Assembly: GCA_046563655.1 (NCBI GenBank)
Contig: CM102286.1
Span: 4,836,001-4,900,000, forward strand
DNA from: Yuukianura sp. NJ FZ-2021
Taxonomy: Eukaryota
Direction: 5' to 3'
Length of the DNA: 64,000 bases
Shown: in pieces, positions 10 through 29,235 of the stretch
Layout of the letters: each line of letters opens with the position of its first letter
Position numbering within the stretch: the first letter of the stretch is position 1
Translations under genes and position numbers: made by a program
The notes under the pieces: generated by a model
Told to the model about the DNA's origin: nothing
Databases searched by the model: none
Seen by the model: the letters and a program-made list of their open reading frames with translations, nothing else

Positions 10-3329
<3,320 letters not shown>

Positions 3330-5374
3330 TTTCAGCTGAGTTTTGTCTCGATCGAGGATGAGGATTGGAGGAGATGGATTCCCAGTACCGATTTCATGCA
3401 AGAATCGACCTTCCCCGTCTCCATTCCCTGAGAAGCGTGCCCTTCAAATCGATCGATTTGTAGCCTCGAGTCTGAAACAAAAATTGTGAATATGAGTATT
3501 GCGTGCGAAAATGATGGATCAGAGCACAACACAAACTAAACTGAAATGCTAATACAACATGCTACTTAATGACAGTACAACACAAACATTGCAATAAGAA
3601 GGCATATTCAGCTGGATAACATTGTTACCGTCTACGGCTATTAACTCCACCCGGCGGAGATCTAATCTTCTCAGCAATTGATTGAACACATTGTTGCGTT
3701 TGGGAAAGAATGCAAGTAGTATCCAAGTAAAATCCAAATTTAAAATTGATGAGGAATGGTAACTCGAACTCACTGTTGTAAAAATCTGCTAAACCATCTG
3801 CCTACTTGCACAACACATATAAATATCGATCATTTAACACAACGTTCTATTTCGGAATACAAAATGGATAAGTAATGATGGTGAGTTTACTTGATCTTTG
3901 ATAATACAGAATCCTCCTCCGTCTGCGAAATTGAAGATGATTATAAGAACTAAACAATAGTTTTCTAACGTCTCCTACTGAAAGCAGTTTTGATAAGTCA
4001 CTTTTAGAACCCTGCTCCCTCCTTATTTCCTGGATATTCGTCGGATTTGCATTTGGTTATATCCTCAAGATGTGCGAGTGCGAATAGAATGAAAGAACAA
4101 AACAAGAGAATAAAAGAAAAGAAATGAATTTGAACATTGCATTGATTAAAAGTCACTTCGCTGAAGTTGCACGACAGATCCAAATGCTTCAACACACAAG
4201 AGGAGGTCTAACCCATATCCAAACATACTTTACTACACCTAAGATCAAATTATGGGGGAAAATTCGTTGCAATATGATGTAGCAGTATTCAGCGCTATCC
4301 TCTACAATCAATGGGATCTGTTAAAAAAGTTATCCGTTAGAATTCATGCAAAACCAAATACTGCAAAATATGAGTTTCAGAATACCTTCAGTGGCATTAA
4401 GTAACAAGCGAAAAAAAAAGTTGTGCAAAAAATGACGTAAAAGGAATTTTACGCCAAGAGCACCGTGGCAAGTAAAAGAATAATAGCGGGTTCTGTGTTA
4501 CCTCACTAAAGTGTATCTCAAATGTTCAGTTTAAATAAAAGTTATAAAAAAAAAAGAGAAAGAAAGAATTATAATAACCTTATTCTGTCCAAAAATTATT
4601 AATACTTGTCTGGCAATTCAAAAATTTACATAAAAAAGAAGTCAACGCTTAAGTGCAAACCTGTATTAGGCATTTCCTTTGTTAAGATTTTTCATTTCAT
4701 CAATCGGTGCATGCATATCCCAGCACTACCGGGTGTTCGTCAATGGTATCAACGGTGCGGTGAACAGAAAAGTAATCCAATAATTAACTTATAATAGTAA
4801 GTATCATTAGTTACAAAAATAATAATTTTCTTTTGCGTTATTTTATTTTTGAATCTTTGTGTAAAATCTTAGACCAGCTGTTGACATAAAGCAAGTTTAA
4901 AAAATTCGACGCGACTCAGCGTCGTTTTTTTGATTTTATGCTAGTAAAGACGGCGCGGTAATGGAAATCCCCGCATACATTAACATACTAGACGGAACTC
5001 CTTTGAGCTCAAGCGAATTGTGATTGGCGCAGGGCATGGGCAGGAGAAGATTAGACAAAGACAGTTAATTTAGTTGTCGAGATCGGATTATACTACACAA
5101 AAATTCATCAACTGCGTTAATCAGACATTAGATATTCAACGTAATTTGAATTACTTTTGTATTGAATTTATTTTTTACAACCATTTATTTCCAACCGCAC
5201 ATGCCCCGTCCCATTCGCAACGATTTTCGTAGGAGAAACTGTAACCTAGGAATGTCCATGCCTGAGTGGGGAAGTACAGTCGCACGAGTAGCCTATTCCC
5301 TTTCCAGTTAAAATTCAAATTCAAAACAACAACAAAATTTAAAAAAAAAACTTTACTTTGTACTTTATGAACCG

Positions 5375-6084: not shown

Positions 6085-16001
<9,917 letters not shown>

Positions 16002-20511: not shown

Positions 20512-21108
20512 ATGGAGACTTTCACAGAATCAAAGGTAAGGAGAAATAAATTCGTTAAAATAAGGAGAAACTTTCTCTTTAATTGAATTTCTTTGTTTGG
20601 CCTTACTAAACTAAATGGCTGTTCCAATTGATATTCTTTTTCCAAAAACTAGTGAAGCTTAACAAAAGACTTTGGTTAGGCTTCGTTTCCTGTGAGGTGT
20701 TGAAAGCGGGTTACCAGCGTGTCGTGAATAATTTTGTTTTCCAGGATCCCAGCGTGGTTACGGATGCCGCTGGCAGAGAAAGCCGCAGTATGGAGCCCTA
20801 CTCTATCGTTTTTTATTGGATTGGATGGATTGCCGTGGCCTATTTAGTCATCTATGTCTTGGCCGTTTTTGTTGGACCAGCCATATTTGGAACAAGAGGT
20901 GACTACCCGTTCTACTATGGACGCAGTCTACGGACACGCCGCCATCTTGAAGTAATTAAAACCTTCGACAACACCTAAATTGACCTTGTCCTAAAACTTT
21001 CACTGTGCCAAAACACTATGGCTCTAAACGCCCTTTTCTTTTTATTACTAGGAAAGTAACTTGAGACTTGTTGCTAAAGTCATTCCAGCTCTGGAAAAAC
21101 AGCATTGA
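20512..21108 (+). CDS. 95-aa single-pass membrane microprotein
   Basis: Three phase-0 exons with canonical sites (20512-20535, 20745-20951, 21052-21108) give METFTESK-DPSVVTDAAGRESRSMEPYSIVFYWIGWIAVAYLVIYVLAVFVGPAIFGTRGDYPFYYGRSLRTRRHLE-ESNLRLVAKVIPALEKQH*, with one clear hydrophobic segment. Confidence 0.75.
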
Positions 21109-22029
21109 ATTAACGTCTGGAGTAATCAAGATACTGGGCTTTGTTCTACTTAATTCTGAAGAACTGCACAACGTATTCCAGCCAAAGGAAACTTTCTTAC
21201 TGCAATAATAGTTGTTGGAATTTAAATTTTATTGTTTATGTAAAATATTTTAAAGAACAAGTAAAAAACACTCAGGCTTTGCCTCATACCAGCAATTTTT
21301 TCTAAAATATCAAAAACGCTTTTGAGAAGTTGTAAAGAAACGTTTCGGTTTAGCATAAGGAAAAAGTTCCAATTTTTCTTCTTTAGCTTGGTGATGGTTT
21401 TTGACTCTTTTGACATGAAGACAAAGGCAGACCCTTCTATTAAAAAAAAAAGTTAGCTTTTGTCCAAAGTTATTGTTTTCAGTGCTAAAATGCGGAAAGC
21501 GACAAAAATATTTGAAACAGGTAGCACACCAACCCGAAAAGTTGAAAAAAAATCATTTTCACCCTGACTGAAAATTAAATTTTGGAATATCGAGATTTTT
21601 CTTTTCATTTTGTCTTTTATGCTGTCAACTCAAAGTTCTCTCTTTCTCAATTTTTTTTTCGACCTCTGGCCTTTTTGTTGTTCAAGATTGAACTTCAGAA
21701 CTTCTTTGAACCTTAGCATAAGTTGGTGCGGCGATTCAAAAATCATAAATATTCAACAATTTCTTTTTAGTTTTGCCTTCAAAGTCAAAAAAACATCAAA
21801 TCGGCTGTATCTAACCACACATGCCAGTACGTGCTATCCGATTTTAAAAACGGAGATTTCTTTTTAAAAAGCAAAAAGGAAATGAATGATTGCAATTTCT
21901 ATACATGTGTATGAAATGTGTATGTAATGTTTTACTTTTCATAACCATATTTCATCTCCATTGATTCAAATTTGTAGTTCAAGGAATCGACGAAATTTTT
22001 GGCACGACCCAAAGAAATGTCGTTGTAAC

Positions 22030-23280
22030 CTAAAAATAACTTCTACTGAAAACATAGGTTTGATTTCCTTTCTGTGATCTTCCCTGTAGCCACCGCCTTA
22101 AGTTTCCATTTCCAAAGGCAACCTTGGTGGCATCATTTCCTCCAACGTGGCGTCCATTTACAAACACATTCGGCCACGTTCGCATTCCCGTCTTCCTCCA
22201 AAGGGCTCCTCTCAACAGCTCCACTTTATCTGTCTCAAACAAAGGGTTCTCAATTTAAAAAAGCGCTTTTAAAATTTGAAGCTATTAGACACACACACGG
22301 GGTACTTTAAGGTAGTATTGCATGATTCCCTGACGCTTATAGACGCTCACTTCTGTACCAGTATTCTTTAGTTACGTTTCGTTATGAACACACGGAATCT
22401 ATTCTAAAATGATTCAAAACACAACGTCCATGACAATACACAGGTGAAAGTCCAGAAGTGAAAGTCCGGAAGTTAGCGTCCATGAACGTCCAGTTACGTT
22501 GTTGGATGTGCACTTACAGGGTTCCAGCTGGTCCACTTCCACTGCCGTGTACTTCTCACCCAGGTGATCAAAGATCCGTTTGGTCTAAAAACCACAAAGG
22601 AAAAGAGCATTGAAGAAGCTGAAAATGAAGCCTAGGAGCTTCAGGAGGGCCCTTGGAAGTCTAAATGAATTAAGTGGAAACCTCTTGGCAGTAGCTGCAT
22701 GTACTTCTCCCAAAGATCAGAACCCTTTCCCTCCTGATCAGCCCCTCAACAAATCCATCAGCATCTGAGGCAAAAGAAACTTCCTTTAACAATCTCTCCA
22801 TGACTTGGATAATTCAAAATCTGTTCAAACAGGAACATGAAAATCTTCTTCCATGTGCCTCCGTTCTCACCAAGGTGACACCTCAACGTCGTTCCTGGAC
22901 CACGCCATCTTCCTCCGCGTCCACACCGTAACACGAGCTCAAGGGGCCCATTACTCTTGTAAAGCATTTGACACCTCATTCTTGCCAAAGTTCGATCCGG
23001 AACCATTTCGGGACAGTTCGAATACTGCCCGCTCGATGAAGACAGGCACTGGACCTCAACTCCCTTCAAAAGTACCAACAAAAATACAAAAACACCATAA
23101 CCTAAAAAATTCCCTTTCAGTTTGAACACATTGTGACTTTAAGCATTATGAACGAGCCCTTAAGGGCTTGACGTTTACCTGTGTTGGACTCAGCTTCGGG
23201 CAAAACATGGTCCCTTGAACAGTACAAATGGATAATCCCAGCAGCAGTAAAGACCAATTGACCCTCGTAGCACTTGACAT
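22030..23280 (-). CDS. Signal peptide + Sushi/Wonton-like six-Cys module + dithiol glutaredoxin (CSYC), about 214 aa
   Basis: Exons 23280-23179, 23063-22871, 22764-22682, 22584-22518 and 22229-22030, all GT-AG, total 645 nt in one frame. Signal peptide MSSATRVNWSLLLLGLSICTVQG; module CPKLSPTQGVEVQCLSSSSGQYSNCPEMVPDRTLARMRCQMLYKSNGPLELVLRCGRGGRWRGPGTTLRC; glutaredoxin FVEGLIRRERVLIFGRSTCSYCQETKRIFDHLGEKYTAVEVDQ...ALWRKTGMRTWPNVFVNGRHVGGNDAT...GNLRRWL. The glutaredoxin call is firm; the extreme C-terminus is less certain. Confidence 0.85.
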
Positions 23281-26200
23281 GGCCCTTAAAATAACTAATC
23301 GTTGGATTTTGAAAAAAATTGAACAATTTTAAAAAATCGAACTACTGCTTCTTCTTGTAGCGTCTTTGGAACTAAAAGTATAACTAGGAAGTGTTTGTGC
23401 AAATGTAGCTAATTTTTGTTTTTAAAATTTGTTTCTTCCTTGATTCTAATCAAAATCAGAAGCCGTCTGGGTCATTTTAGGTCAAAGTTGATAAAAGCAA
23501 CTAAAAACATAATTCATGCAACCTTGTAAGAAAGAAAATGCTACACGATGGGCAAGGCCTTAGAAGTTTTTGAGAGTGGGAAAATTGATTTCTGTTCCAG
23601 TTATGGCGGAGAGAAAGAACATGAATTTTCGTATAACACGCTACGCTACGACGAAAAACCTTCTCTTATAGTAGTCTAAAATATTTATCCTCTAAAAACG
23701 TGAAATTGATGAGTTCAGAAGCTCGCGGAAAATGGGAATTTGATTCTGCTCACAAAAATTTCTATTGATTGATTACACTTTCCAAATTGGCACAACCATT
23801 TTTGTATCATCATATGCATTTGAAATAGTAGTTTTACAAAGTACTGTTTCACCATAATGGATTTTTGTCTTCCAATTCTTTTATCTTGCACAAACCTATA
23901 CCTACACTTAACAAATAGGATTCAGTGGGGAAGTGAGCCATTTTGAAGTGCTTACCCACAGATTTCCTAATGGGACTCCAGTACCACATCAAAGCAGGTG
24001 AAATTTTTTACGAGCAGGGTTTTACTATACAAATTTCGAAAGAAAACTTCATTTTGTTTACAAAAAAATGAAAACCGACAGAGGGGCGGAAAAGTGACGA
24101 CAGTGACCTACGTCAACTTAAAAAACCAAAAACAGAAATTGCTATACTTTTACAACCGAACTTAAATTTAGCATTTTTAAATGTGCTGCGGGAACGTAAA
24201 CTTCCGTAACCTATGTAAGTAATTGTTTCGCAATTGATAGTTAACTGATTAACGGTTAATTTAGGATTAATTATAGTGTATTGTTGCCTAATTCGACTAA
24301 ACCTATTGTTAAAAGTACTTGTTGACATACCGCTGTAAAGAGTAGCTTTTAAAGCAACAAAAGTCGCCAAGAAAAGAAGGATGAAATTGTCGTCATTGAA
24401 TGGTTGGGTAGGTTGCTACATCGTTATTAATTCCTTTCCGATGCGGAAACCTCCAAGTTGTAAACGGCGCGAAAGAAACCGTGTTTCAAGCTTCGTTCAG
24501 ATTTTTTTTGGGAAGTAAGAAACCGTGGCGGTGGTGAAAAAGGGGAGACTGCTATGCTGCTAGTGCCTGTTTAGGTTAAAGTCTAAAGTCGTTTTCAAGA
24601 AAAAGTATGGTTTCCTCTACTTCTTCGAAAAAAGGATCTGGATCCCCATTATTTATGTACTCGGTATCGGTTTGGACAAGGAGTGCCAATGGGAATGTGT
24701 GTGTAGAGTAAGAATACTTCCCCAGCAGTACTTCTGCAGCCAGAAAGCTTGCAATGTTCCAGGAACAGAGGCGGCAGATATAAAAAATCCTGATAGGAAA
24801 GCCAACATGAGAGGAAAGGCAGCAAAAGGAAGTAAAGTATTCCAACGGTGGCTTTAGGTCTGGAGTCTACTTTCTCCAAAGGAACAAAGTGAAAGCATGA
24901 AGAACAGGATATAAAAAAATAATCAATAGGTAAGAAGAGCCTTTTCCCCAACTAACTTACGGCACGGCTAAACTTGAATATCCGCACATACAGAACAACA
25001 CAAAAACTTTTGTTCCATTTTGTCATTTTTTCCTAACAAAAAAGAAAAGAGCCATAAACTGATTTCCCATTTTTTTCACCAATCAGACCAAAATTACAGC
25101 TTGAACTTGTTAACCTTAGAGTTATGAGGGTCTTTTTTGGAAATTTAAAAACAAAATCAAGCCTAATTACTTTAATCTGATTCTGAAAATATTTTGCCAA
25201 TTAAGCTAAAAAAAACCTAAGACTTTGAAAATTGGCGAAATTTCTCTAGATTCTTGTTTAAAAAACTTAAATTAGTCTAGAAACCGAATTTTATGAGAGG
25301 TCAAAGCCATCAAAAAAAAATTTTTTTTTGTAGTGTTAAGGGTAGAATTTTTTTTTGTAGTTTCTGCATGATAAATAATTGTTTCAGACAAATTTCCTAA
25401 AACCATGTTTTGGAGAAAAATAAACTTACAAAAATTTCACAAAAAGTACCACGGCCGAAGAAAATCAAATGAAAATAGAAACTTTTCCTTCAAAATCAAA
25501 AACGTTCTACAAACAATTAGTGCAATTGCGATTTTCTAAAAAGATCTAATAAGAATAGGTATTTATAGTAACTCAGTTGATTTTTTTTTAGATTTTTATT
25601 GATTCTTAATTTCTGTCTGTATAAATAGAATAACCTTAACATGTACTTCTAGTACTTGGGACTATTGAAGAAAGAAACTTTCTCCCACGCGACTAACATA
25701 GTTTTTCAGTTGTTGCTTTACTGCGTGGGAGTAAGGCTAAGACCTACGTACTTTCTCCATAAAGTTCCATCTCCCTATCTACCCAATCTATCTGATGGAA
25801 CGGAAGAAAGAGAGTCTCACAAAATGCGTGGGCTTTCTCCTACTCACGGCTTCAAATTTAACCGCCAAAGAGGAGAAAGTGTTTAAGACGCGTAGCCTTT
25901 TTGTTTCCGATGAATCACTCTACAAAAACGGACGAGTGACTAAACTTTTGTGTGTAAGTGGTACGAATAACTAGAAGACATAAACAGGAAAAATTTTACA
26001 ATAATACAACTTACTCAATATTACTTAAGTACACTCATCAGAAATCCTTAAATCAAACTAAATGCTCCACTTAAACATTTCACAAGACTTTTATATATAA
26101 TAGACTTTCTAATTTAAACATTTTTACTCTGTGTAGTAGAAAACAAAAAAGAGACTGTTGAAAATGCACAATTTTAAGCAATTTTTTGTTAAAGGCAGAT

Positions 26201-26875
26201 CCTAGAGTACCAGGGAATTTAAGTCTATGTGCTCACAAAAGTCTAAAAACTTCGTTTTTTGCGCTGCTTTACTTTTTCAAAAGTTTTTCAAAGAGGACAT
26301 TGTTCTGATTCACTTTTTTTCTAAAGAAGTCTTTCTTTGGTATCGGTATTGTCGTAAGCAATTTCCAAATTTTTAGAAAACGTTATCTGTTCTAGGGATT
26401 AGTCTTAATGCTTTTGAAAACAGAAGCAGCTATGATCGTCAGATTAACATTTATGCTACCAGGAAAAATGTAGGTTTGTGCTTAGTCGAAAGAGATTTAA
26501 GGCAAGAGGGTTGAAAAAATTGACTAAAAATGAATTTTATATACCTCCGTTTTTTGTAATTCCAAGTTCATTTCTACATTAGACAGGAAGGAATCGTGCG
26601 CACAGGGAACGTGAGGGACTTAAGTGAATTTCCAAAAAGGACTACACGAGTACACGTAGTCCCTTAATACATTTTTCTTTTTAATAATAAAGTTAAACAG
26701 GACACCTTGAGTGACAGTCCAGTTACTCAATCTGGATGAAGAGCAGAACGGGTAGTAGCACTTCCGGACACAGCAGCAGCCGTCCAGCACAAGCTGAACG
26801 CTGGGTCTATGTTCAACCGAATCTTCGTTGGCTTGTTAGCTGACGACAAACCGGAGGGGGGACTTAGGGGAGTTG

Positions 26876-29235
26876 CTATGTTTCAAGGGATGCGATGAGG
26901 CTGTGGAAGACAACGGACTGCAGTTCACCAAAAATGGATGAGTGGCCACAGGATGAGAACTGCTGTTTTTCGGCGGCAGGGGAGGTGTTGGTTTCAGGGG
27001 TCCCCAAAGGGCCACTGGTCCCGACTGAATTTGGACACTTATGTTGGTGAACTGGGAGATCAGCTAAGGGGACGCTGACGTTGAGTCCAGGAGGGCAACA
27101 GGATGACGAAGACGACATAGGGGAGGACTCGCACTTGTTTTCCTTGCTCTCCTCGCAGATTTTTGGTGACGACGGGTCACATGACTTGTCTTCCAGAACG
27201 TCCAATCCAGTTGTACTGGTTGGACTGGTCAAGTGAAAGTCCAATCTGAATTCGTCCATGACCTCGTCACCAGTTTCGTTAGAGTTAAGATTCGTTTGCG
27301 TTGTACTTGTAGCATTGTCCCAACTACTTTTGCTACCTCCGACGACATCAACGTCAATTTCAAAATCTTCAACCCCTAGGTCTGGAACTGCCGCTGGAGA
27401 AGCCTGGAGATGACTGGAGACTGTGACCTCGTGACCTTGACCTCCTTCAATTGTCATGCGCGCCTTTTTGATTTCTCCATCATGGGATGATGATGAGGGG
27501 GAGGCAGAAAGACATTCGAGGGAGATGGGGGTTGGAGGCCTCGAGCCCCCCTCTTCGATGGCTGAGATAATGCAAGGAGGGGTGGGTGGGATGTAGATTT
27601 GACTGAGAACTTCCTCAACGTCAGACTCAGGATCCTCCGTCAGAGGGCGTTTTCGTGAATTGTGCTGATTGGAGAATGAGGATGGTGGACCATAGAGTGA
27701 CGAACTGTCATCAATGAGGTCATCGGCATGAACCAACTCTTGAAGGCGTGAAGAGGCAAAGCTTTTCCGGAACGAGTGCATGGAGCTTAGCTTGGACATG
27801 TACCCACCGTTCCGTACCATTTTTTCTTCACGAACTTCGCGCTGAAGCCGTTTTACTGTGTTGTTGATTAGCACTGATCGTCTTAGAAAACTTTCTGGAT
27901 CTTCTATACGTCGAACTTTGTTCAATGAGACCTTGAGAACCTGCAAGGAATAAACGGAAATTAGATCACATGGTAGCATAGGTTCAAGTGACCTCGTAAG
28001 CATGAAAGTGAATTGGGGTAGGCCTACTTTTCTAAAAAGTCCAATTCAAACCCCTTGAACTCTTTTTCAAATTGATTTTCAATTTGACCACCCCGATTTA
28101 TTATTTACGTGCACCCGAATTTGTGGCATTTTTTTAAACTTGTTTTTACTGAACTCGGAGTTTTCATGGAAAAAAAAGTTTCAAAAAAATTTTATTGTGC
28201 AATGACTGGTTGAAATTTCCTTGAAATTTCTAACCCTATGTTAACTTAAATTTAAAGTTGAAGGTAAGGGCGTGTGATTTCAGCACCTTTTAAGTAAGTT
28301 AGGCTTCACCAGTAAGTGATTGGAGCTCTTTTGGAATAATATCTCATTAGTATTTCTGTTCATACGAGAGCATAAGAACTTTGGAAGTTATTAGTTTCAT
28401 GTTGTTTTTGCGTTTAGAAATAATTGTTTGCCTAAGCAGTTAGTTTAGGTTTTTGAGGAGCAGTTGCTGTGCAGGCTTATCATGTCAACCAAGTGACGTG
28501 GTTATGAGACCGCAGCCATGGTGGTAGCCAACATTGCACAGAGATAATGGGAACATTTGTAATATTTTGAGGTTATTCTGTCCTTTTCCTCTCCAATTAA
28601 TGAGCCATCAATGAAAGACAGGGATTGAGGTTTACTGTATATATTTTTACTAAGATATGCACAGTGTTGCACAGTTTTAACATAACGTTAGGTTCAAAAA
28701 GCTAAGGTTTTACAGTTTTGAGGGGAGTAACTATGAGGTGTGAGACAATGCCAAAAAATAACAATGGAATCAAAACCCTTCTCCCCTCATGATGCTAATC
28801 CAATGCACCAAAGATTTTTTCCAACTTTGTCTTTTCATTCCTTCACTTCTCTACCCTTAAACTTTGAGCTCAAAAATGTACAGAGCGAGTCTTGAACTTT
28901 TTCAAAATCGGTTTTTCAAAAACGAGAACTTACCTTTTTCCGTTCCTCTCGAAGTCTGTACTTGGCTGTGAACATGGAGGGCCTTCGAGTTGTGCCCGAA
29001 CAGAGACCACCACTGAAAATAGATGTAGAAGATGACAGCCCAATCCCCGAACAAGATGACATTGCTTCCAGATAAATATTTGAATCCTCCCAGTAGTTGA
29101 AGTTTGAAGCTTCTAAAGCTTGAAGCTTTGAAGCTTGTTTTGCCCTGGGTGTGGTTGGTAGCACTCGTGTGGTTAATTTCTTGTCACTTGCTTCCAAACC
29201 TCCACTAATTTGTTCCAGATTAGACTTTAGCAAAT
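26876..29235 (-). CDS. tara: Taranis / SERTA-domain transcriptional co-regulator (two main coding exons)
   Basis: Exons 29235-28934 and 27940-26876 join in phase 0 to give the SERTA domain (REERKK|VLKVSLNKVRRIEDPESFLRRSVLINNTVKRLQRE). Also present are an N-terminal W..SNIYLEA motif, VLSQIYIPPTP, and the C-terminal SCGHSSIFGELQSVVFHSLIASLET* typical of the family. Start is either ATG 29062 or in an upstream exon (candidate ATG 34979). Confidence 0.88.

Follow-up and report, generated by a model that had tools for sequence, protein, structure and literature searches.

A predicted secretory gene of Yuukianura sp. that appears to join a divergent Sushi-like module to a class I glutaredoxin

The stretch analysed here, referred to below as the window, covers 64,000 nucleotides of the Yuukianura sp. 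NJ FZ-2021 assembly GCA_046563655.1 (contig CM102286.1, positions 4,836,001 to 4,900,000), and our subject is a gene on its minus strand whose predicted product carries an N-terminal signal-peptide-like segment, a six-cysteine module resembling Sushi, or complement control protein (CCP), domains, and a glutaredoxin (Grx) domain. Rebuilding the model from the window returned five GT-AG exons between 23280 and 22030, exactly as first proposed in an earlier note on this DNA, and joining them by coordinate gave a coding sequence of 645 nt that translates into 214 amino acids (aa) before a TAG stop. The introns have phases 0, 1, 0 and 1 in order, the first phase-1 intron falling between the cysteine module and the glutaredoxin as that note had it; the donors read GTAAAC, GTGAGA, GTTTCC (weak, exon 3) and GTAAGT, and all acceptors are AG after a pyrimidine tract. 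Cysteines stand at residues 19, 27, 40, 51, 65, 81, 96, 121 and 124, so that the six-cysteine spacing given earlier (x12, x10, x13, x15, then x14) is exact, and the motifs CSYC, TWP and GGND occupy residues 121–124, 166–168 and 178–181. The mature protein is computed at ~21.8 kDa and is basic (pI about 9.7), with two N-x-S/T sites at residues 8 and 204. No second copy of the gene was detected within the window or in the contig described next (next best tblastn E ≥ 0.25), and an Rfam scan of the whole window gave no match. Coordinates are collected in Table 1.

To place the gene among known proteins, we relied on an exhaustive HMMER (phmmer) search of 1.84 billion representative proteins with exon 2 as the query, which yielded three matches at E ≤ 0.001. 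The first, P0001, is an 11-repeat Sushi protein (E 9.4e-10 summed over 8 stretches; Pfam Sushi 2.4e-109), the second is a long repeat protein aligned over 23 residues only, and the third, P0002, is a 148-aa protein with 48% identity across the whole of exon 2. P0002 is a singleton whose source is one 23.7-kb Joint Genome Institute (JGI) metagenome contig, L001. It consists of a signal-peptide-like stretch with F-C-P-I-L-T-P-P-Q, 30 unrelated residues, the exon-2 homolog down to C-H-L, and an unrelated tail, and is a read-through of introns 1 and 2, as from a prokaryote-style gene caller. Joined by coordinate, the exons on L001 have the same intron phases as the window gene, the same lengths of exons 3 and 4 (83 and 67 nt), the motifs R-S-T-C-S-Y-C, T-W-P and G-G-N-E, and the same domain junction, C-H-L/D-A-D-G-F-V-E. 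The five-exon structure with its single frame, as the earlier note had described it, thus recurs in an ortholog at a synonymous divergence (dS) above 1, which is beyond chance.

The two proteins align over 194 codons with 61% identity and an overall ratio of non-synonymous to synonymous divergence (dN/dS) of 0.19. By part, identity and dN/dS are 42% and 0.41 for the signal region, 48% and 0.25 for the Sushi region, and 74% and 0.115 for the Grx region; dS (1.3–1.7, Nei-Gojobori) is saturated and the ratios are approximate. Both domains, for which the earlier note had suggested this comparison, are thus constrained. Invariant between the two species are the six module cysteines, the module tryptophan, CSYC, R118, Y123, R165, TWP and GGN[D/E]. 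The loci are also collinear over about 12 kb (L001 1489-12138 versus window 29075-16333), with a SERTA gene upstream and a convergent neighbour downstream. The gene is evidently real, coding and under purifying selection. Because the same five-exon gene, with the same phases, junction and constraint, is found on L001, the fusion appears to be real rather than a mis-join, and it is very probable that the Sushi-like and Grx parts belong to one gene; the ortholog speaks strongly against two genes and bears out the single gene of signal, six-cysteine module and Grx that had been put forward.

The N-terminus has the composition expected of a secretory protein, as judged by a heuristic on sequence composition and motif. 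In both species it combines one Arg/Lys in the n-region with a 10-11-residue apolar core and V-x-G at -3/-1; in the window protein the sole strongly hydrophobic stretch is residues 9–19 (LLLLGLSIC), followed by V-Q-G. No 19-residue window outside this N-terminal core is hydrophobic enough for a membrane span anywhere in the 214-aa protein, and neither C-terminus (...SRSYF in the window protein, ...WLQG in L001) carries a KDEL-like tail, so that the signal-like start, absent transmembrane segment and absent retention tail read from the letters at the outset withstood inspection and point to a probably secreted protein. The ATG of exon 1 is the first in its open frame. Further upstream coding exons were considered and rejected: the ATG is preceded by an in-frame stop at a distance of 6 nt in L001 and 48 nt in the window, and no coding-looking frames occur in 23300-26800. 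The presence of this stop just upstream in both species indicates that the signal-like sequence is the true N-terminus. A mitochondrial presequence and a signal anchor were likewise rejected, because the N-terminus contains a single basic residue and its apolar core, though unbroken, is no longer than 10-11 residues, as was a glycosylphosphatidylinositol (GPI) anchor, since the C-terminal tail is polar and missing from the ortholog. This tail, 16 residues in the window protein with an N-Q-T sequon, is not conserved, L001 stopping straight after W-L-Q-G. The stop codon itself is shifted between the orthologs (window 22030-22080 versus L001 6983-6985).

For the domain assignments, Pfam, PDB and Atlas scans were run on single exons rather than on the spliced protein. 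Exon 5 matched the Pfam Glutaredoxin family at profile positions 37-60 of 60 (E 0.0012, 19.4 bits, cut-off 22.9) and exon 4 at positions 15-34 of 60 (E 0.11, 13.2 bits, same cut-off); exon 5 of the ortholog scored 22.0 bits against the family (PF00462), and exons 1 and 3 scanned alone matched no Pfam family. Searched against PDB sequences, exon 5 matched 42 distinct chains with an E-value of 10 or less, of which nearly all are named as glutaredoxins or Grx domains. The best were yeast Grx1 (2jac, E 1.8e-6) and, at ~2e-6, 6mws, 3c1r and the CPYC-type Grx 7ncv; the Grx domain of thioredoxin reductase 3 (TXNRD3) was also among the best, while human and fish Grx2 (2ht9, 2fls) came in at E about 3e-3 and yeast Grx6 at 0.12 (3l4n) and 0.27 (5j3r). 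Exon 3 showed a weak collinear match to residues 39–61 of Grx2 3uiw (E 0.19), and on 5gtx a weak match of exon 4 to residues 51–68 is followed by exon 5 at residues 75–113. In the Atlas feature search, 21/30 matches to exon 5 fell in a Glutaredoxin set at 0.91, the top match (0.94) being without a family. Since the three exons match successive parts of the profile and of Grx chains, they read as one uninterrupted class I Grx, and exons 3–5 evidently encode a complete class I dithiol glutaredoxin.

The residues expected of such an enzyme are in place. The active site R118-S-T-C121-S-Y-C124 has the CxxC pair, a basic residue three positions before it and a short loop, and is identical in L001; T166-W-P168 and G178-G-N-D align to the motifs of yeast Grx1, with Trp replacing the Val of T-V-P. 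The complete glutaredoxin with CSYC, TWP and GGND that the earlier note had read is confirmed residue by residue and kept in L001 (as GGNE), but its classification of CSYC as Grx2-type does not hold for the domain, exon 5 being nearer to yeast Grx1 (1.8e-6) than to human or fish Grx2 (~3e-3). Nor does the tryptophan resemble the class II 'WP' motif, which sits two residues upstream of the cis-Pro triplet, unlike the Trp inside T-W-P here. The glutathione-site set kept in both species comprises Arg118, Tyr123, Arg165, the cis-Pro and the GG motif. [quoted passage not shown] The same passages report that a K105R exchange had intermediate effects in an intracellular roGFP2 assay and made the reductive half-reaction faster in vitro (PMC7138851).

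The module encoded by exons 1 and 2 is more divergent. Exon 2 matched Pfam Sushi (PF00084) at profile positions 17-52 of 56 (E 0.036, 14.9 bits, cut-off 20.7), the first 16 positions being encoded in exon 1, outside the exon-2 scan. It had an Atlas feature score of 0.95, with 21/30 matches in a Sushi set, and its one match in the PDB sequence search, not significant at E 0.87, was a helminth TGF-beta mimic made of atypical CCP domains. Several CCP hallmarks can be recognised along the chain: the C27-P start, a Gly eight positions further, alternating hydrophobic residues ahead of Cys65, Tyr68, a Gly, Cys81, G-R-W86 and Cys96. The four consensus CCP cysteines, the C-P start, the Tyr and the G-x-W are all conserved in L001, and Cys40 and Cys51 are an additional pair that falls where CCP domains have their hypervariable loop. 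By the CCP consensus, the disulfides would be C27-C81 and C65-C96 (canonical) and C40-C51 (extra loop). Against a hidden Markov model (HMM) derived from the 11 P0001 repeats, the spliced module of the window scored 12.7 bits and that of L001 scored 8.7 bits. None of 2000 full shuffles of the window module, and none of 2000 with the cysteines kept in place, reached 12.7 bits; for L001, 8.7 bits was reached by 3/2000 and 1/2000, respectively. Aligning the two-sequence module with the P0001 repeats in hhalign gave supportive but modest values (probability 45%, P 2e-4, 32 columns). Of the candidates from word-index searches of longer proteins, 16 with exon 2 and 32 with exon 5, none reached E ≤ 0.01, which is weak evidence. 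On sequence grounds, we regard the module as divergent CCP-like, with a CCP fold that is putative.

The exon structure of the module bears on its origin. The signal peptide and the first module strand share exon 1, and a phase-0 intron divides the module. Because the module is therefore not a symmetric 1-1 cassette, classic exon shuffling, which had been invoked as the source of the fusion, is not specifically indicated.

Table 1. Coordinates of the Sushi-Grx gene in the window, of its ortholog and of the downstream neighbour.
Feature	Position	Strand	Content
Exon 1	23179..23280	-	Start codon 23280-23278; signal-peptide-like residues 1-23 (23280-23212); then first Sushi strand F-C27-P-K-L-S-P-T-Q; phase-0 GT donor
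Exon 2	22871..23063	-	Remainder of six-Cys Sushi/CCP-like module (Cys40, 51, 65, 81, 96; Trp86); C-H-L end, phase-1 donor
Sushi-like module span, Cys27 to Cys96 including intron 1	22878..23202	-	From Cys positions
Exon 3	22682..22764	-	Grx helix 1, strand 1, active site (R118; C121-S-Y-C124 at 22699-22688); 83 nt
Exon 4	22518..22584	-	Grx helix 2 and strand 2; 67 nt
Exon 5	22030..22229	-	C-terminal half of Grx: R165, T-W-P 22179-22171, G-G-N-D 22143-22132; tail residues 199-214; TAG 22032-22030
Ortholog exons on contig L001	6001-6096, 6187-6391, 6515-6597, 6694-6760, 6834-6985		200 aa; joined by coordinate
Convergent downstream neighbour, open frame with YPFYYGRSLRTRR	20610..20978	+	Synteny marker; same frame on opposite strand at L001 7772-8038, just downstream of ortholog

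Taken together, these features lead us to favour, with moderate confidence, a reading in which this gene, single-copy in the window and L001, encodes an exported class I CSYC glutaredoxin joined to a divergent three-disulfide CCP/Sushi module and acting as a targeted redox enzyme. The signal peptide would be cleaved after V-Q-G23 and the protein would enter the endoplasmic reticulum (ER), where the Sushi module would be oxidised to its three disulfides; the need of such a module for oxidative folding fits the signal peptide. With no membrane span and no retention tail, the protein could then pass through or out of the secretory pathway, and in that pathway or in the extracellular space the Grx domain would act as a glutathione-dependent thiol-disulfide oxidoreductase or (de)glutathionylase. 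Cys121 would attack and Cys124 resolve, with R118, Y123, R165, the cis-Pro of T-W-P and G-G-N-D making the glutathione site. The linker between the two domains is ~4 residues long and conserved, suggesting a fixed arrangement in which the Sushi module, rigidly next to the Grx, may bring the enzyme to a particular protein or surface. What the sequence shows is the structure of the gene, the identity of its domains at sequence level, their conservation under purifying selection and the synteny; that the exons are joined in vivo, that the protein is secreted, how its disulfides pair, that it is catalytic and that the module targets it are what we infer.

Variation at the locus was examined in genomic contigs from three runs of one sample (21900-23400); 40 of 53 variant places are listed, numbers are small, and alleles are inseparable from strains. 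Among the listed places, 11 are exonic (645 nt) and 29 non-exonic (856 nt), and all four indels among haplotypes lie outside exons. Eight of the 11 listed exonic variants are in exon 2, seven of them within codons 39–53, around the Cys40-Cys51 loop (window 23007-23049), and the Grx core shows a single conservative change among those listed, R160K. One contig allele combines S42L, S45R and Y48N within seven codons with one silent change, leaving the cysteines unaffected; its depth relative to the other form is 167 versus 112 in X1 and 71 versus 200 in X2. The Cys40-Cys51 loop may therefore be under diversifying or relaxed selection. A bolder idea, which we hold to be a long shot, is that the gene founds a group of extracellular 'targeted glutaredoxins' of arthropods, in which the Cys40-Cys51 loop would be a variable recognition surface, as the clustering of 7/11 listed exonic polymorphisms in codons 39–53 and the three-change allele would favour, and the Grx would reduce, isomerise or deglutathionylate a disulfide switch of the partner. 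Candidate partners would be haemolymph proteins of an immune cascade, cuticle proteins or microbial surfaces. If true, recognition of the pattern type and extracellular redox catalysis would be directly coupled.

A number of observations weigh against the reading of an exported, targeted enzyme. The Sushi match of exon 2 does not reach its Pfam cut-off (14.9 versus 20.7 bits), and L001 exon 2 and P0002 gave no Pfam Sushi match at E ≤ 0.1. Single Grx exons likewise all score below their cut-off (19.4 and 22.0 versus 22.9), introns splitting this domain. AlphaFold models of the module were of low confidence (pLDDT 51.8 for the exon 2 alignment, 44.8 for P0002), with strands only in the module part, and a Foldseek search of the PDB at this model quality returned 12 matches, all at E ≥ 6.4 and none at E ≤ 0.001. 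The Trp in place of Val in TVP is unusual and family-specific. Glutathione is scarce outside cells, and a classical extracellular Grx cycle is hence uncertain. Only one relative was found (two species in all), so the family may be narrow, and 9/11 of the listed exonic changes (40 of 53 places listed) alter the protein, which looks relaxed or diversifying. Finally, none of the five sequencing runs listed is recorded as RNA, and the contigs at the locus are genomic, cover the introns and carry no exon joints, so splicing and expression are predicted.

Among the alternatives that we weighed, the one that fares best, although still unlikely, is that the Grx serves mainly to bind a [2Fe-2S] cluster or to sense redox state, the Ser for Pro in C-S-Y-C letting two molecules bridge a glutathione-ligated cluster. 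The CSYC motif of human Grx2 has been linked to Fe-S cluster binding; here CSYC is conserved in both species, and the human Grx2 structures 2ht9 and 2fls (E about 3e-3) are among the PDB matches to exon 5. For yeast Grx6, a dimer is reported in which a [2Fe-2S] cluster coordinated by glutathione bridges the two molecules (PMC5053157). However, the second cysteine is kept, and the domain lies nearer to active dithiol enzymes of the Grx1 type (1.8e-6) than to Grx2 (3e-3) or Grx6 (0.12), while assembly and stability of a cluster seem doubtful in the oxidising secretory pathway.

We give slightly less credence to the possibility that the Grx fold is a non-catalytic binding or structural domain (a pseudo-enzyme), or a one-shot reductant or oxidant in a matrix such as cuticle. 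T-W-P takes the place of T-V-P in both species, and the extracellular space is without a glutathione supply. A precedent is offered by SRPX/SRPX2, in which Sushi repeats are combined with a thioredoxin-fold domain whose catalysis, in the sections of the describing paper that deal with it, is only predicted (PMC3091736). Against a pseudo-enzyme, the residues kept at dS > 1 are precisely the catalytic and glutathione-site ones, and the Grx part has a dN/dS of ~0.12.

Least probable of all, and by a clear step, is an artefact in which exons 1-2 and 3-5 belong to separate transcripts (for example a Grx-only transcript from an ATG in intron 2) or the locus is unexpressed. In its favour, none of the runs is recorded as RNA, the exon 3 donor GTTTCC is weak, and the window Grx frame (22670-22813) extends upstream of exon 3 with a Met in it. 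Against it, in L001 this frame opens only 8 codons before exon 3 and has no Met, and exons 2 and 3 are only 106-123 nt apart in the two species. The splice sites, the codon split by the intron, its phase and the residues flanking the exon 2/3 junction are conserved, reading into introns 1 and 2 gives peptides that have no relation between the species, and purifying selection acts on both halves.

Around the gene, the window contains several further coding features. The SERTA-motif gene upstream (window 26876-28045, minus strand; L001 2463-3533; Pfam SERTA 1.4e-14) gives tblastx blocks of up to 94% between the two contigs. Between it and the Sushi-Grx gene sit four non-coding blocks (24641-24685, 24887-24953, 25582-25646 and 26327-26372) that are 80-93% identical to L001 (3921-4974) and have no long open frame across them; they might belong to the 3' untranslated region of the SERTA gene or help to regulate one or the other of the two genes. 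Further away, window 2037-3443 (minus strand) holds a large exon of a mixed-lineage-kinase-type gene (SH3 and kinase, Pfam), whose best matches are MAP3K9/10/11-like with 53-62% identity over about 45-57% of the query. All 23 organism-named rows among the best 32 kinase matches are from arthropods (insects, ticks, spiders, scorpions and crustaceans), the first vertebrate standing at row 33. As no kinase match is close, the kinase exon by itself would suggest a host that is probably an arthropod, from a lineage that seems little represented in public proteomes. At 10221-11894 (plus strand), a 557-codon open frame with many hydrophobic segments, and no Pfam match at E ≤ 0.1, is apparently a large exon of a multi-pass membrane protein.

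Turning to known systems, the exported, module-bearing glutaredoxin proposed here is closest to the class I dithiol enzymes (yeast Grx1/Grx2, plant and parasite CPYC Grx, the Grx domain of TXNRD3, human Grx2), with which it shares the CxxC pair, the upstream basic residue, the short loop, the Tyr, the cis-Pro, the GG motif and the C-terminal helix. It departs from them in having Trp rather than Val in the cis-Pro motif and CSYC rather than CPYC. Those enzymes are, in addition, single-domain proteins of the cytosol, mitochondria or nucleus, whereas the gene here adds a predicted signal peptide and a Sushi-like module; to our knowledge, dithiol glutaredoxins of animals are treated as cytosolic, nuclear or mitochondrial. 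The active site of yeast Grx6 also has Ser for Pro. Yeast Grx6 and Grx7, however, are monothiol, membrane-anchored and without a Sushi domain, while the gene here has a dithiol CSYC and a hydrophobic core too short for an anchor; it has neither the monothiol C-[SP]-Y-S nor the anchor of the Grx6/Grx7 type, and its match to Grx6 is weak. Secretory-pathway glutaredoxins have been described for yeast and plants: class I-type enzymes (yeast Grx6/Grx7 and plant proteins) that carry a targeting sequence at the N-terminus and work in the lumen of the ER/Golgi (PMC4279222, PMC5053157, bioRxiv 10.1101/2023.09.01.555924).

In a full-text literature search, no description of a Sushi+Grx protein was found, in agreement with the earlier note, which knew of none; an annotated one is possible in domain-architecture databases, which lie outside that search. 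No secreted or extracellular animal glutaredoxin was found by literature search either, and a broader search surfaced only GRXCR-type proteins. Proteins of the GRXCR1 type have in common with the gene here an animal Grx-like domain and a cysteine-rich region; they are intracellular, their cysteine-rich part is C-terminal and zinc-binding, and they carry neither a signal peptide nor a Sushi pattern. One Grx domain-containing cysteine-rich protein appears among moult-regulated isopod genes in a preprint (bioRxiv 10.64898/2026.08.02.742273).

The module also invites comparison with the Wonton domain of insect modular serine proteases, to which the earlier note had likened it. Wonton is indeed defined as Sushi-like with six cysteines, and the cysteine count of the module here agrees with this definition. 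Wonton has been described as 'a disulfide knotted domain' after Sushi in LDLa-Sushi-Wonton-protease enzymes (PMC1761132). In ModSP/HP14 it lies between Sushi and protease, behind LDLa repeats (PMC1761132, PMC7215089), and the likeness considered here is that of a Sushi-like module with six cysteines, in a host that also looks arthropod-like.

A conserved animal gene with a seemingly competent secretory Grx and a recognition module would offer a handle on enzyme-catalysed thiol switching in the invertebrate secretory pathway or extracellular fluid, and, as a small protein with two active-site cysteines and an ortholog pair at hand, it is directly testable. The nearest parallel in overall architecture is provided by SRPX and SRPX2, extracellular proteins with CCP/Sushi domains and a thioredoxin-superfamily (P-DUDES) domain, for which the authors, in the relevant portions of their paper, propose redox activity coupled to protein contacts (PMC3091736). 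The resemblance is by description: the redox fold of SRPX/SRPX2 is peroxiredoxin-like, not glutaredoxin, and is accompanied by three Sushi repeats and a HYR domain. The Sushi-glutaredoxin gene would thus be an independent parallel to the vertebrate combination of Sushi and thioredoxin-fold domains in SRPX and SRPX2.

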